Position numbers: made by a program
Part shown: positions 1 to 6,000 of the stretch, in pieces
How positions within the stretch are numbered: the stretch's first letter is position 1
Layout: the number at the start of each line of letters is the position of its first letter
Origin: Abditibacteriaceae bacterium
Lineage (GTDB): Bacteria; Armatimonadota; Abditibacteriia; Abditibacteriales; Abditibacteriaceae
Length of the DNA: 7,687 bases
Reading direction: 5' to 3'
NCBI GenBank assembly: GCA_031372065.1
Contig: JANMKN010000051.1
Coordinates: forward strand, 1-7,687

Positions 1-3000
1 TTTAATCTCTTCGGGTTCAATTCCCCGCAGCTTGCTGCGACCATGAGTGCGAAGCACTCTTCCCTTGGAGCGCGGAGCGCTCTTGAGAAAGAACTCGTAG
101 GACTTGACAAAAAAGTTAGACTCCTCATTCAAATACCCCGTAGCTTGCTGCGGGGATTCTTTATTCGTCTGACTGCCATATCCCGTCGCGGTAATCGTCA
201 CGCCGTAATCTTTGGCCGGTGGCTGCGGCACAGTTTGGAATTGTCCTTGGCTATCGGTAACGATTTTTTGTGGCATTCCTTCGTAAACAAAATTGGAATT
301 GCCTTGCGGAATGATAACCGCCTCAGCGACGGCGCGACCATCTGGGTTCTTAACAGTGCCCTTTAAAATAACGCCGTTATTTTGTGGTAGTTTTATGGTG
401 ACAATTGGCGAAGACGCGGTGACAGTTCGCACGCCGGAAAACGAATTTTTGGTGCGTGCCGCTATGATAAAATCGTGTCCCGGCCCGCTTTCGACGCGAT
501 AAGTGCCGTCAGATGCTGTTTGACCCACAGCAAAAGCGAAAGCGCGTTCTGTCCCACTAAAAATCGTGGCGCCTTCAAGGGGCTGGCCTTTGTAATTCAG
601 CACTTTAATCGTGACGCGCAAGGTTTCACCCAAAACAAAATCGCGCGCTTTTACATCTTGCTTGGCGATGCTAATCGTTTGGTCGGGATTCGGCGAACGG
701 GCGCCGAACATTCGCGGCACAAAATAGCCTTCTGGCGCGCTGGAAAGGCGCAAAATTATGTTGCCGGGCAAGGCCCAGAATTGATAAAGTCCCTCGGCGC
801 TACTGACGGCTAATCGCTGTGATTCTTCGCTGCGCTCGCCCACAGAAACAATTTGCGCATTTGGGATGGGCTTGCCGCTGCGCGAAACCACGCGCCCGCT
901 GATTTTGGTGCCGCGCATTGGCTTGACATCAAGTTGTAAATCGTTGTGTTCTCGGCCTGCTGCGACCTCTAAATCGAGTGTTCCTGATGCTTTCCATTCG
1001 CGCGCCGGGTCATCTATGAAACGAAGGCGCAAATGGCCCGGCGGCACGTTTTCAAAAACGAAATTGCCTTCCGCGTCCGGCTTTTGCGCAAGTGGCAAAT
1101 CGCCGCCGAGATTGTCGCCTTCAATTTGGATTTGCAAACTGTCCAGCGGCAAATTTTCATTCGCGTTCACAACGCGCCCGCGTAAAGTGACGCCGCGTTG
1201 CAAAACAATGGCTTCGTAGGAATTAGTCGGATTTTCGTAGCGTGTGAGCGGCGCGTAGCCGGGTTTTTCGACGGTAAAATACAAGCGCGCTTTGGGCGGG
1301 ATACAATCGAAAACGGCGCGGCCTTGGGCGTCGGTTTCGGCGCTCCATAAAGCCGAGAGCGGCTCACCAAAATAAATGCTGCGCGGCTTATTCTCAGGCG
1401 AGAGAACATCGAAGAGATAATTCAATTTTACGCGCGCTCTGGCGAGCGGTTGGTTTTGCGCATCTTGCACCACAACAGTCCGCGCCGTAGCGGGCAGTAA
1501 TTTTAGCTTTAACGAAACTGTTTTTTTGTCTTGTCCAAAGCGGATTAAATCAATGCCTGCTCCCTTCTGATGCGCCGCGATAGAAGGTGCCCAGACTTTG
1601 CGATTTTGCGCATCGGTTTTTTCATCAGGCGCGGGTGCATTTAAGGAAAATCGACCGGTTTCATCGGTTGTGGTTTGAACAATTTCGCCCTGCGTGCCAA
1701 CAACAATACGCGAAAAAACAACTTGCGCGCCGAAAGCGGGTTTGCCGTCGGCGCGCAAAACTGTTCCTGCGTAAATTACATTTTCGGCGCGGGCCGCCGT
1801 GATGAGTAGCGTGATGAGCGGCGCGATGAGAAGACAGCAAATCAGCCACTTGCAGGGACGCAGATTTTGGATATTTTTCATAAAAGAGCGTCCTGCCTTA
1901 CCAAACAAAAATCGCCGTGAACTGGAATTATGATTTTTCTTGGCGAGGCAGGACGTTTCGGGTTATTTCACCACAACATTCAACTTTTGTTCGGCGACTA
2001 AAACGCCCGCTAAAGGGCCGCTGTCGAAGGTGGCTTTGAGGGAATAAACGCCGGGTTTGGCAGTTTCGGGCACTCGCACGGAGGCCGGGCAAAAACTGCC
2101 TCAGGCAAAGCCGCTGGTTGCCATCGAAAGCACTTTGCCGCTTGCATCGCGCAGTTCGATGCGCGCCATATTTTCGTTGTAATTTTGATGGTTTTTCACG
2201 GCGTTCGTCAGTTGCAAGCCTTGTTCGGTTTCCAAACTCAGTCGCACTGTATAATCCGTGCCGCGCTTTAATTTCAGGTTCGTCGGCGCGCCCGTCGAAA
2301 ACTTCAAATTTTCAAAGGGTTTGACTTCTTTGGTGCCGTCGCGCGGGATTTCGAGCGGGTAAAGGCGGCTCTTTTCATCGCCCCAGCCGCGCACAAACGA
2401 AAAGCGCCATGGCAGTTTATTGCGATCAAATAATCCCAACGTCAGGCTGGCGGTTTGATATTTTCCGGCGGGCACTTTGAGTTCTTCGTTGAACGAATGC
2501 GCCGCAAACGCCTCGCCGGTTTGCCCGACAAGTGTCATGGCGATTTCATCCGTGCCGCCACCTGCCGCCGGCTGAAATTTCACGCGCGCTTTGCCAAAGC
2601 CGCTGTCAATTTCTTTCCAGCGCGCCGGGCCAACTGGCGGCAAATAAAACGAATAAGTTTTCTCGCCGATTTTTAAGAGCGGCGCGGCGGCGAATTGTTC
2701 GCTGACTGCGTCGAGTTTGCCGTCGCCGTTGCGGTCAATCCACAGTTGGTCGGCGCCCTCATCACTGAAACTGCCGTTGCCGTTGCCATCGCCCACGATA
2801 ATGGCGCGTTTGGCTCCTTCAAATTCGATTTCACCGCGCCGAAAACCCTGCCAACTCCACATCAGCTCACTCGGCGAATCGCCGAGCCACGCAGCCGCTT
2901 TGCGCGGTAACGAAACCGGACGATTGTTCCAGAAAAACGGCGCGCCCATATCCACAACGGAGCCGAATTTATAGGTTGATATATCATTTGATTTATCGCC

Positions 3001-6000
3001 CGCGAAATTTTTGCCGCCGCCGAGTTTGAGTTCTTTAGTCCATTCTTTGTCCCAGTTGCCATTGACGCCGCCATGTAAAAACAAGCGGCCATCCGGCGTG
3101 TGCGCCAAGGCGATATTCAGTTTTTGTTCGCCCGCGCCATCCAAAGTGCCGTAAGTCCATTTGGTGCCCGTCGGGCGTCCTTGAGGCGGCTTGATTCTGG
3201 CATCGGGCGCCAGATAAATCACGCGCGGCGCGCTTAAATCGGCGCCGCCCCAACTCCACGATTCGTCAAGCGGCAACTCCACAATGCCGCTGTTGGGTTG
3301 CCCCGGCGCGGCCACGGTTGCCATCGCGCCACTTGCCATTAAAAACGGCGCGGCGATGAGCAATTTTCTAAGATTTTTCATAGTTCTGCTTTTAATCGTC
3401 TTCGTCTGGCTCGGCAAAACCCAAAGTTCCCCGCAAATTTTCGAGGCGCTTTTGCGGTGTTGAAAACGCATAATTAGCCGCTTGCGAAACATAGCTTGTT
3501 TTTTGCGCGGGGTTGGCGCGGCTCATGATTTCCTCGGCCAAAAGCGGATCAACTTCCAGTGCGAGGCCAAAAGGACGCGTTGATTCATCACTATCATTGT
3601 TGATTTTCATGCTGCGCCATGCGGCAAGTAACGAGCGCGCATAATCGCGGCCCAAAGCGGGCGAGGCCAAAAGCAAAGTTCGCGCATAATTCGCCTCGTC
3701 TCTGATGTTTTGAGCGCCTGAATCCCATGCATTTTCTTCCCGTTTGGGGCGCGTTACAAAAAGGAGACGGGCCAGAGAATCTACATCGGGCGCGCTCCAC
3801 TTACGACCCTGTGACACAATAAACATCAGTTCCGTATCAATATTTAAATAAGTAAATTCGCTTTTAGTGCGCGCCGCTTCGCCGGCTTTTATGGCCTTGC
3901 GCCACACTTCTAAAAGCGTTGTGCGGCTAAAAGACGTGGTGCGGCTGTAAGGTGCGATAGCCTCGGCCATCCAGCCGAAAGCGCGCATTTTGGCGTTATC
4001 TTTCAGGGTGGCGGCCAAGGCTTCGGCTTTGGGTAAATCGTTGAGAGCAATGGCAGCGCACAGCGCGGGCAATTTATAGCCTTGATTCGATTCGTCCAAA
4101 TTCTCACGCACTAATTTGATGGCGCGGTCAGGATCGGTTGGCGCCAAGCGATAAGCCAGCATTCCGATATAACGCGCCTTTTCGCTTTGGTCTTTGGTCG
4201 GCTCGATGAGTTTCCACGCGCTATCGAAATCTTGCGCCACCAATTCGCGGGCGACTTCGGCGCGCGCGTAGCCTTCAAAATCGTTGCTGGTCAGCTTTTG
4301 TGCGGCGCTTACGGTTTCCTGCAAAAGCGCCTCGCCGCTGCCTTTTTGCAGAGTGTTCATCGCTCCGGCGATTTTCGCCAGCATAATGGCGCGATACGAA
4401 ACTTCCGGCACGGCCCGCGCCATCGCCAGAGCTTGAGGCAGCAAAGTTTTGGCGGCAGCGGGCTGCGTTTTGGTCAGTTGCAGCAGGCCAATCACCAGAG
4501 GATAAGTGCGCATGATTGGCTCTTTGACGTTGTTCCAATGTGCCATCGCCGTCGCCACATCCGGTGGCGTGCGATGGAGCGCCGCATTGCCCAATTCCAT
4601 GAACAATTGATCGCGCACTTCTTTGTTATCGGCCAGTTGCACAGCGCGCGGCGCATCTACTTTTGCCAGATAGCCCAGCAAGGTCGCCGTCGTATAATTT
4701 TTGTTGGGATCGCTGCTTTTTTGAGCTTGTGTGATGGCCGCTTCGAGATAGCGCAACGCCACGCGCTTTGCGGCAACTTGGCTTTGCGCGGCGGGCACGA
4801 AGGGCGATTTGCTGGCCGCATAAAAGCCCAATCGCACATCAATAGTGGGCGCGCCATCGCACCAGACCGCGCCAGGAGGTTGGCCTGCTTTGTCGGCACA
4901 AATAATCAGCGGGCCGCCTGATAATCCAGCGAGATGAAAACGGCCCTGCGCGTCGCTGAGATTTTCAATTGGCGCTTTGGTTTCGTGAAAACCGCCGCGC
5001 ACTGCCACGCGGGCGCCGCCGATGGGTTGACCTTTGGCATCGCGCACAACGCCCCGTAATACACCATCGAGACTTTGCAAAACCAGCGCGCTGAAATCAT
5101 GCGTTTCCCCGGCGCCGCCTTTCCACAAGGCGCTTTTGGCGGACACATGATTTACGGCGGTAGCAAACAGCGAAAACGTGCCGTCGGGCCACAACATTTC
5201 GCTGGCGAAACGTCCATCGGCGCCGCTTTTCAGTGTCACTTCTACGCCGCCGGTTTGCCCGCGCATGACATTGATTTGCACCTTGGCATTGTTCACCGGT
5301 TTGCCGCGTTGATTGACAACGCGCCCGCGCAATTTTACGCCGCCATTTTCTTTGAGTGTTAAAGTGACACTTTTTTGCTGTGATGGGTTAAATTCCACAC
5401 GTGGCGACATGGCTGTTGCTGTTTTGGCCGCGATGGTAACGGTTTCTTTGCCGTTCAAATTGGGCAGCGTGACGCGGCCTTCGGCATCGGCGCGCAGTTG
5501 GTCGCCACCGTAAAAATCGAAGCGCGAAAACAAAAAGACAAGTGCATCAGGCTGCGGCTTGCCGCCTGCATTGACAACGCGCGCCGCCAGTGAAACCGCT
5601 TTTGATAAAACAAAACTCGGCCCGGAAAAAGGCCCCGCTGCATCGGCGGATACTTTAATGATCTGCGGATTATAATCCGACGGTGTGCTATAGCCTTGCG
5701 GCACATTGAAGACGCGCAGTTTTGTTTCGCCAACGGGCGCCGGAAACGAATAAGTGCCGCCCGCAATTGTTGTGGTTAGTTTGCGATCATATTGAGGCTT
5801 GTCTAACCTTGTGCCGTAAAGCGTGACGCCTGCGAGTGGTTCGCCAATTTCGTTTGTCACTTTGCCGGTCACAGTCACAGCGCGCAAGGCTTTGAGGGGA
5901 ACTTGAATTTCTTGCTCGGCTTTATCGGCTTTGATGTCAATTTTGGCTTCGATTTGCGGTAAAAAGCCGCTGTCACGCGCTTCGTCCTGCGGTAAAAAAG

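Follow-up and report, generated by a model that had tools for sequence, protein, structure and literature searches.

Selenoproteins of the bacterial SelB/SECIS type have in common an in-frame UGA, a hairpin within the ORF, paired Sec and Cys forms and a dependence on selA. The locus described here, from an Abditibacteriaceae bacterium of the Armatimonadota, is alike on each of these points, but in its family Sec forms outnumber Cys forms by about 10:1 among the matches retrieved. TlpA/redoxin selenoproteins (UxxC; also UGC-containing TlpA) are likewise exported with a Sec/Cys pair, and the N-terminal module of the present protein is joined to a CxxC TlpA-type thioredoxin domain in two homologues (L036 and P0306; hhalign against L036, 98.5%). 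The present protein itself, however, has neither a thioredoxin fold nor a thioredoxin-family match in Pfam or NCBIfam, its model is all-beta and its spacing is U-x-x-x-C. The DUF1573 selenoprotein (PF07610, motif UGC) also has Gly directly after Sec, and DUF1573 has an Ig-like fold; by contrast, the motif here is UGxxC (UGSFC at this locus) and none of 28 Sec domains matches DUF1573 at E ≤ 0.1. The DUF1573 gene of the source genome, on contig C158, contains no TGA.

MG domains of alpha-2-macroglobulin and complement C3/C5 share the fold of residues 356–472 (Z 8.5–9.8), with weak Pfam MG2 matches in 18 of 28 domains. That likeness is, however, tied with many other Ig folds (Z 8–9.8), and the MG2 (PF01835) scores of 18.9 bits for the domain and 15.5 for the whole protein fall below the cut-off of 32.8, so that the 'MG2-like' last domain of an earlier note on this DNA reduces to a weak, generic Ig-fold likeness. 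The thioester motif is CGEQ with a Gln partner; a split alpha-2-macroglobulin/thioester arrangement was rejected, as there is no thioester-domain match and no Gln in the motif. BlaR1/MecR1 sensors (M56 plus BlaI) have a counterpart in three homologues (L093, P0121 and P0139) in which an M56 domain is joined to the Sec/Cys protein, with a BlaI-type gene upstream in L093. Unlike in those sensors, the outer part is the Sec/Cys protein and not a penicillin-binding domain, and the protein studied here has no M56 domain. Finally, SaoC, SaoB and SaoX are exported selenoproteins of the SAO system, and the sections of Haft and Gwadz cited here (10.1101/2022.07.06.499078) describe database proteins cut at the UGA tens of residues early, as in the present family, some copies of which lie near Sao-like ABC genes and a double-cubane reductase gene. 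By contrast, no NCBIfam Sao model matches, and motif, fold and phyla differ.

The family appears to be unlisted, fitting no Pfam or NCBIfam family and none in the 2026 catalogue, in agreement with the earlier note. NCBIfam gave no family for the query P0001 at E ≤ 1 and no seleno family among 28 Sec domains or 13 read-through variants, in a set that includes the recent seleno models NF049953, NF041374, NF049942, SaoP and SaoX. Compared by description, no family in Table 1 of the 2026 review (PMC13188914) has a UGxxC motif or this architecture, and a literature search found no description of this exported Sec family. One 'hypothetical' planctomycete selenoprotein candidate, given without sequence in Table S9 of PMC4807772, could belong here.

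Gene and recoded UGA

The window, the 7,687-nt stretch of DNA that was analysed, carries on its minus strand a gene (1963..3381, read from 3381 to 1963) that encodes 472 aa followed by TAA if its single in-frame TGA is read as U; the database version (entry P0158) has 426 aa and ends at the TGA. This TGA is codon 427 (2101..2103, minus strand; read 2103–2101), lies in the motif SGFA-U-GSFC and is followed by 45 codons before the TAA. Cys431 (2089..2091, minus strand), the sole Cys of the protein, is the probable resolving residue.

TGA is an ordinary stop in the source genome, where it terminates 584 of 1,715 long ORFs. Codon usage was coding-like on both sides of the TGA, as claimed previously, with scores of 0.229 for the 45 post-TGA codons and 0.233 for the part of the gene that precedes the TGA. 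By this measure, the post-TGA stretch ranks fifth among 133 TGA-ended long ORFs with at least 45 open codons, and the four ranked above it have an in-frame ATG within 2–5 codons. The Sec machinery was found again in full (selA, selB, selD and tRNA-Sec), selD itself having one in-frame TGA. The genome contains other selenoprotein candidates as well.

A hairpin with a conserved apical stem after the UGA

The hairpin after the UGA had been put forward on the strength of its −18.7 kcal/mol. We reproduced the energy, but the whole hairpin is no more stable than shuffled sequences (z −1.2 to −1.6; apical part alone, z −0.7), and its overall stability was dropped as evidence for recoding. Only the apical stem is conserved. 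Folding, covariation and codon constraint place a candidate bacterial SECIS core at 2069..2086 (minus strand), a short stem with a 5-nt apical loop (window 2080–2076) that has G at position 2 and starts 20 nt after the UGA; loop, G and spacing fit the bSECIS pattern. Of 59 sequences, 57–58 keep its three core pairs; changes on both sides of a pair number 26, a value reached in none of 500 shuffles. Synonymous codons within the hairpin are also constrained, Arg being CGA in 72 of 82 cases (background 12%) and Val being GTG in 73 of 79 (35%). In the window, the upper stem consists of three perfect pairs, a one-base bulge and three further pairs, of which RNAalifold retains just three; the consensus drawn in Fig. 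2 of PMC13188914 has an upper stem of 4–16 bp. A similar loop at a similar distance occurs in the genome's own peroxiredoxin-type selenoprotein candidate (contig C351). Rfam had no match within the window, and a promoter scan, uninformative here, gave no sites.

Distribution of Sec and Cys forms

The family is commoner than the 6 of 201 Armatimonadota genomes first reported: 41 of 401 genomes match and 30 hold one TGA, which is present in 33 of the 46 matches. Domain matches in 301 Planctomycetota genomes (E ≤ 1e-6) have TGA in 58 of 64 cases, and 41 of these genomes contain the TGA form. Among 80 Planctomycetota loci, the Sec column is TGA in 77, TGC in one and cut by contig ends in two, bearing out the claim that the TGA is held at the same column across both phyla; the tail past this column measures 39–57 aa in 76 of the 77 TGA loci. 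HMMER again returned 354 proteins at E ≤ 1e-3. Among the best 150 of these, 123 end in G-[FYW]-x and 7 in a looser form, in line with the previous figure of about 130 cut at the Sec codon, whereas Cys forms number 13 and not 11; the other 7 are fragments or of another kind. In a further count, 119 of 120 database entries appear to end just before the Sec residue. A metagenome scan with one protein as query yielded near-copies only, and viral contigs one weak match (L007, E 1e-6) in which the motif is missing.

At the Sec column, the aligned read-through proteins have Sec or Cys without exception, and 80 of 83 retain the second Cys. Cys occupies the Sec column in L017, L077, L132, L149 and L158; Sec forms without the second Cys include L012, L014, L023, L093, L153, L154 and L161, and the homologues L022 and L034 have lost both residues. 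The presence of selA follows the TGA form, with 28 of 30 Armatimonadota TGA genomes against a background of 214 of 401, 40 of 41 in Planctomycetota against 220 of 301, and 68 of 71 overall, counts that include related genomes and hence are not independent samples. TGA forms without detectable selA are found in G191 and G124 (both 86% complete) and G468. selA was absent from all six Cys-form genomes tested (G067, G185, G371, G402, G477 and G630).

Four independent lines (the conserved TGA column, the covarying hairpin with its codon constraint, the Cys forms and the selA concordance) support selenocysteine. Judged from sequence, UGA427 is almost certainly decoded by SelB and tRNA-Sec by way of the hairpin 20 nt downstream, giving an exported 472-aa protein with Sec427 and Cys431 on one loop of its last Ig-like domain. 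The earlier reading of gene g00331 through the UGA to 472 aa is upheld by the translation, the conserved column, the SECIS constraint and selA concordance.

Protein architecture

Inspection by eye of the N terminus (basic start, hydrophobic stretch, A-x-A, with homologues starting alike) points to a probable Sec-pathway signal peptide at about residues 1–21 (3319..3381, minus strand). An N-terminal all-beta module follows at residues 36–260 (2602..3276, minus strand; model pLDDT 86.6). Within it lie two acidic loops, D198-G-N-G-N-G and D216-R-N-G-D-G (2719..2790, minus strand), conserved in an alignment of 125 sequences in which D198 is invariant and G203, D211, D216 and E228 reach at least 90%. 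We liken them to the Dx[DN]xDG motif, which we take to be of calcium-binding type, and they may accordingly be putative calcium-binding sites. The secondary structure of the model suggests a middle beta-rich domain at residues 261–355 (2317..2601, minus strand).

The C-terminal domain, residues 356–472 (1966..2316, minus strand), is predicted from model fold matches and profile searches to be an Ig/MG-like beta-sandwich that carries the Sec. Its best-described likeness is to an MG domain of complement C5 (Z 9.8, rmsd 2.5, 88 aligned), within a range of Z 8–9.8 for many Ig folds. Sec427 and Cys431 both fall in loop 424–432 of the model (pLDDT 89), and the conserved tail after the UGA completes this domain. 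With up to eight profile matches per genome, the Sec domain behaves in sequence searches as a mobile module. The description of the protein as tandem beta-sandwiches is therefore borne out only for residues 356–472 and lacks a clear fold match for residues 36–260, where a structure search found nothing at E ≤ 0.001 and the best structural match (Z 6.7, rmsd 3.0, 87 aligned) shows neither a new nor a known fold. Foldseek with the whole model gave generic multi-Ig matches only (TM < 0.2), and a PDB sequence search at E ≤ 0.001 gave nothing for the whole protein or the domain profile.

Partner gene and possible functions

Ten nucleotides upstream lies a gene (3392..6832, minus strand) for an exported protein of about 1,146 aa with CarboxypepD_reg-like repeats and a helical repeat region of about 460 aa, assigned by Pfam, alignment and co-location. 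In 70 of 80 loci the gene has a partner of about 1,150 aa next to it, which the Cys forms L077 and L127 retain while selA is absent; a nearby partner is missing for many Sec-domain proteins. Downstream, after an 81-nt gap, is a CarboxypepD_reg-repeat gene (Pfam; 1..1881, minus strand) that is cut by the contig end and not conserved as a neighbour. BlaR1-type or ECF signalling domains can be joined to either partner, M56 or ECF fusions being found in L038, L044, L051, L110, L093, P0121 and P0139, a small minority of the family. Four findings go beyond the earlier note: the partner gene, a mobile Sec domain present in several copies, a subfamily beside selA and the replacement of the Sec domain by a thioredoxin domain on a shared N-terminal module.

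We lean towards a Sec/Cys site in the envelope that is redox-active or electrophile-reactive and works with the partner. The selenol would attack a disulfide, oxidant or electrophile in the cell envelope, and Cys431 would then close a selenenyl-sulfide with Sec427. Together, the 472-aa protein and its partner, presumably co-transcribed, would form a two-part envelope module in which the Sec domain takes the role of the thioredoxin domain on the shared N-terminal scaffold. Because some lineages have one partner joined to an M56 protease of BlaR1 type or to an ECF sigma factor, the redox or modification state of this module is probably a signal input. In favour of a reactive Se/S site are the invariant Sec/Cys, the second Cys, their position on one loop and the thioredoxin swap, and further the adjacent partner gene, which Cys forms keep without selA, and the M56 or ECF fusions. 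Counted against redox chemistry, the Ig fold is not known as a redox fold, the U-x-x-x-C spacing is not the U-x-x-C of thioredoxins, some Sec forms lack the second Cys, signalling fusions are few, and scans of 46 and 87 neighbours showed no DsbD/CcdA-type electron-donor gene. The semi-conserved Cys of the partner (35 of 51) is a weak candidate for a redox target, since it is replaced elsewhere by Ala or Val; it looks structural from its conservation pattern.

We regard as unlikely a reading in which Sec is inserted and the Se/S loop, rather than undergoing redox cycles, captures soft metals or metalloids (Hg, Cu, Cd or As) in the extracellular space, either to trap them or to provide a sensor with its ligand site. 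The exposed Se/S pair on the modelled exported Ig fold, the lack of a reductant partner in the neighbours scanned and the BlaR1-type and ECF fusions would suit it, and one of the fold matches is to copper-binding CopC (Z 8.2, rmsd 3.0, 93 aligned); that match, however, does not stand out from dozens of generic Ig folds, no mer or metal-efflux genes were seen among the same 46 and 87 neighbours, and the thioredoxin swap favours redox.

The surroundings of selA bear on a second alternative, an exported protein that captures, relays or reports selenium, with UGA acting as a stop when selenium is lacking to give a 426-aa protein whose last domain is unfinished, a possible switch. A second subfamily of Sec-domain proteins adjoins selA, within 2.2 kb in 10 of the 30 Planctomycetota TGA genomes for which the place of selA was listed, and in Armatimonadota the distance is at most 10 kb in 3 of 25 TGA genomes. 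Neighbours of these copies include selB/selD, MtaA-type methyltransferases and corrinoid proteins, a double-cubane reductase and a Sao-like ABC transporter; the cited parts of two sources tie such genes to methyl-selenium salvage (PMC10418091) and to selD (10.1101/2022.07.06.499078). We nevertheless give a selenium-economy role little credence: the window gene (contig C26) is not near selA (C287), Cys forms and partner persist without selA, and co-transfer alone could place selenoprotein genes near sel genes.

A structural Sec, forming a stable Se–S bond inside the domain or tying the protein covalently to its partner at the surface, seems improbable. The tight gene pairing and the partner Cys are compatible with it, as is the third Cys that 36 of 83 proteins, two forms without Cys431 among them, have close to the loop, whereas retention of a costly Sec in most members would argue for reactivity, the partner Cys varies and many Sec-domain proteins lack a nearby partner. 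That translation does end at the TGA, or that the codon stands for another residue, the tail being a dead remnant or separate gene, is highly improbable despite the unexceptional stability of the hairpin, given that the conserved tail completes the domain, TGA is otherwise a plain stop in this genome, selA-free genomes have Cys at the column and the synonymous-codon constraint fits a SECIS.

Implications

The exported selenoproteins gain from this analysis a large family, present in two phyla, in which Sec dominates and the fold is not that of thioredoxin. As new bacterial selenoprotein families regularly come to light by the same logic, the mechanism of recoding is not in itself new. Hundreds of database entries appear to stop just before the active residue, and the family is one candidate reason for the frequency of selA in both phyla. 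Cultured Aquisphaera species, a genus in which A. insulae carries the TGA locus L050, would allow the family to be tested. More tentatively, and in our view rather doubtfully, the Sec Ig domain could be a modular extracytoplasmic receptor: a chemically modified selenol, or the outcome at the UGA (Sec insertion or termination), would be the message that the partner complex relays to a BlaR1-type protease or an ECF sigma factor. If true, transmembrane signalling would use selenocysteine as the residue that senses its input, and would do so in a family that about one-tenth of the genomes in two phyla contain.

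Readthrough of an in-frame UGA

The gene at window positions 3381..1963 (minus strand) ends at a TGA after 426 codons under translation table 11; with TGA read as selenocysteine (Sec), it encodes a protein of 472 residues. The single in-frame TGA is codon 427 (window 2103-2101, minus strand), in the motif SGFA-U-GSFC. The Abditibacteriaceae genome encodes tRNA-Sec, selA and selD on contig C287 and selB on C44, and its selD gene also contains one in-frame TGA. TGA is an ordinary stop in this genome, terminating 584 of 1715 long ORFs. On codon usage, the 45-codon tail scores 0.229, compared with 0.233 for the gene before the TGA, and ranks fifth among 133 TGA-ended long ORFs with an equally long open tail; in the four ORFs ranked above it, a new gene starts immediately after the TGA. 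An earlier note had proposed that UGA427 specifies Sec, a reading supported by this gene-like codon usage together with conservation of the TGA column, a SECIS core and concordance with selA.

Elsewhere in this genome, an exported TlpA-type redoxin frame (contig C65, minus strand, TGA at reverse-strand offset 10182) has its TGA in a U-x-x-C motif; it likely belongs to a known selenoprotein family, and the gene caller probably split its gene. On contig C351 (minus strand, TGA at reverse-strand offset 4114), a peroxiredoxin-like frame contains T-x-x-U, followed by a hairpin with a loop resembling that of the Sec gene.

Conservation of the TGA and its replacement by Cys

Matches were found in 41 of 401 Armatimonadota genomes. 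Exactly one TGA lay within 33 of the 46 matches (30 genomes), on the motif column in every match excised for inspection. A contig scan that used 12 aligned proteins of planctomycete type yielded 80 loci, all from Planctomycetota (about 70 genomes, counted by eye from accession prefixes). The Sec column was TGA in 77 of these, TGC in one and lost at contig ends in two, and the tail past it measured 39-57 residues in 76 of the 77 TGA loci. A profile of the Sec domain (residues 356-472) matched 58 of 301 Planctomycetota genomes, with up to 8 matches in one genome. At E<=1e-6, 58 of 64 matches contained one TGA; weaker matches included long TGA-free proteins, whose Ig or MG domains are probably unrelated.

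Among protein representatives there were 354 matches; of the best 150, 130 stop just before the Sec column and 13 have Cys there. Likewise, 119 of the 120 matches listed in a second protein search stop before this column. The TGA is present in Aquisphaera insulae (L050), and the annotated A. giovannonii proteins OJF2_66720 and OJF2_35590 stop at the motif. In a preliminary tree with 50 Sec and 15 Cys rows (65 in all; midpoint root), 6 Sec/Cys label changes were required, at least 4 of them forced by well-supported branches, so Sec and Cys have been exchanged repeatedly.

In one assembly series, frameshifts affect both the Sec gene and its upstream partner gene (L082, L086, L087, L088, L091, L095, L098, L100, L102 and L103), while the TGA and hairpin are undamaged; these frameshifts are probably sequencing errors. 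A viral contig from IMG/VR (L007) weakly matches residues 343-415 (E 1e-6); this relative has a TGA close to its end and lacks the motif.

Presence of selA followed the codon at the Sec column, with the two lists matched by eye. Among the TGA genomes, 28 of 30 in Armatimonadota (background 214/401) and 40 of 41 in Planctomycetota (background 220/301) have selA; both backgrounds are far above the 21.5% of bacteria given in PMC10418091. The TGA genomes in which selA was not found are G191 and G124 (both 86% complete) and G468. All six testable genomes with a clear Cys form (G067, G185, G371, G402, G477 and G630) lack selA, as do the genomes of homologues with neither Sec nor Cys (G302 and G230); a genome with a Ser form (G347) has it.

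A conserved apical stem downstream of the UGA

The earlier note had also reported a hairpin of -18.7 kcal/mol after the TGA. We reproduced this energy, but it does not exceed that of shuffled sequences (z -1.2 to -1.6). What is conserved is the apical stem. Across 59 ungapped downstream regions, a selection from about 100 that excludes near-duplicates and four regions carrying an additional codon, pairs 21-31, 22-30 and 23-29 were maintained in 57, 57 and 58 sequences, respectively, and RNAalifold returned the identical three pairs. Both-sided changes numbered 26 over six pairs, a count reached in 0 of 500 shuffles; as the structure was taken from the consensus and the sequences are related, this is not a probability.

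Codon choice was compared in 94 distinct sequences, with the upstream part of the same genes as background. Downstream of the UGA, Arg was encoded by CGA in 72 of 82 cases (12% upstream), Val by GTG in 73 of 79 (35%) and Ala by GCC in 54 of 56 (48%), and Ser never by AGY (0 of 80, versus 35%). This pattern indicates that synonymous codons are fixed at the positions that the stem requires, evidence that is independent of folding. The upper stem in the window comprises 3 bp, a bulge and 3 bp; its loop, spacing and energy agree with the consensus bSECIS model (PMC13188914). In the Abditibacteriaceae genome, the SECIS core follows 3 of the 584 TGA stops, and only the one in the window has a long tail.

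Protein anatomy

The structure model is all-beta (pLDDT 89.2) and places U427 and C431 in a loop (424-432) between two strands; a minority of its 125 aligned rows span the tail. Residues 356-472 form an Ig/MG-like sandwich (best Z 9.8, rmsd 2.5, 88 aligned), with many Ig folds tying, and 18 of 28 Sec domains gave weak MG2 matches. The N-terminal module (residues 36-260) is also well folded in the model (pLDDT 86.6), and a structure search with it gave no clear match (best Z 6.7). A signal peptide was assigned by eye from the sequence. Cys431, the sole Cys of the protein, is retained in 80 of 83 aligned read-through proteins.

The Sec domain forms the C-terminal end of proteins of about 180 to 900 residues with differing front parts. 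The N-terminal module, in turn, has other fusion partners: a CxxC-containing thioredoxin of TlpA type in L036, a redoxin in P0306 and, in L032, one that lacks CxxC. Tandem arrays of 2-4 Sec-domain genes occur in L174 (G502:C222), L173, L167 and L175-L177; a frame that follows or flanks a Sec domain in L167, L176 and L177 runs on into a further uncharacterised ORF.

Partner gene and neighbourhood

Directly upstream, separated by 10 nt, lies a gene (window 3392..6832, minus strand) for an exported protein of 1,146 residues that contains CarboxypepD_reg-like repeats and ends in a helical region. A profile of this helical region, built from the window and 17 of the 80 Planctomycetota loci, found the partner at 70 of the 80, in 69 on the same strand; the remaining 10 all end early at contig ends. 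In Armatimonadota, it adjoins the Sec gene in nine loci, including one Cys form. Partner-type genes outnumber Sec genes in the Abditibacteriaceae genome, with four clear copies against one. Fusions involve either protein: L038 and L044 join the partner to M56, L051 and L110 join it to an ECF sigma factor, and L093 (with a BlaI-type gene upstream), P0121 and P0139 join the Sec protein to M56.

A formylglycine-generating-enzyme family gene (window 6908-7687, plus strand; PF03781, E 3.6e-65) is divergent from the partner gene and is not conserved as a neighbour. GT87 glycosyltransferase genes lie downstream of the Sec gene in many Isosphaeraceae-like loci (L054, L055, L059, L081, L083, L085, L088, L090, L092, L096, L102 and L104).

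A second subfamily, mostly without the partner, is located by sel genes. Of 30 Planctomycetota genomes with a listed selA position, 10 have such a gene no more than 2.2 kb from selA; in Armatimonadota, 3 of 25 genomes have one less than 10 kb away. The neighbours scanned here (87 of 118 extracted ORFs, and others) include selB, selD, MtaA-type methyltransferases with corrinoid proteins, a Sao-like ABC transporter and a double-cubane reductase. An extended SelD, with about 50 additional Cys-rich residues at the N-terminus and a further extension at the C-terminus (L117:3315-4880, L118:5303-6898, L119:7571-9130, L165, L167, L169 and L170) recurs in both phyla, adjoining methyltransferase and corrinoid genes.

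An uncatalogued family and its possible function

Pfam gave no match above cut-off for the protein or 28 Sec domains, and NCBIfam, which includes recent seleno models, none for the protein, 28 domains and 13 variants. A term search of PMC13188914 found neither Armatimonadota nor Planctomycetota. In the portions covered of the literature searched, including PMC13188914 (Table 1), PMC13326102, PMC12013277, PMC13745706, 10.1101/2022.07.06.499078 and PMC10418091, the family is not described, and the part of PMC7826278 covered has nothing on the partner. PMC4807772 lists one unnamed hypothetical selenoprotein candidate (Table S9). The claim of an uncatalogued selenoprotein family holds against Pfam, NCBIfam and the literature covered, and we consider the family genuine.

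Recoding, export (by eye), the fold of the last domain and the gene pairing are, at the level of sequence, established. Beyond these, we lean towards a reactive Se/S pair in the envelope, which would exchange disulfides or sense oxidants or electrophiles, acting jointly with the partner and in some cases coupled to transmembrane signalling. This is suggested by the invariance of Sec/Cys, with a second Cys, by the thioredoxin domain swapped onto the N-terminal module, and by the retention of the partner with Cys forms where selA is absent. Counting against it, the second Cys is absent from several Sec forms, no electron donor for the pair was seen among the neighbours scanned, and Ig is, to our knowledge, no known redox fold.

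That the Se/S site binds a soft metal seems unlikely. A switch for selenium economy or status seems about as unlikely; the second subfamily lies by sel genes, and the Sec gene of the window lies away from selA. A structural bond would be very improbable. An absence of recoding at the UGA is barely credible given the TGA column, SECIS core and selA concordance. With the reactive Se/S pair as the function we infer, the family combines a known decoding mechanism with a new fold and a new setting.
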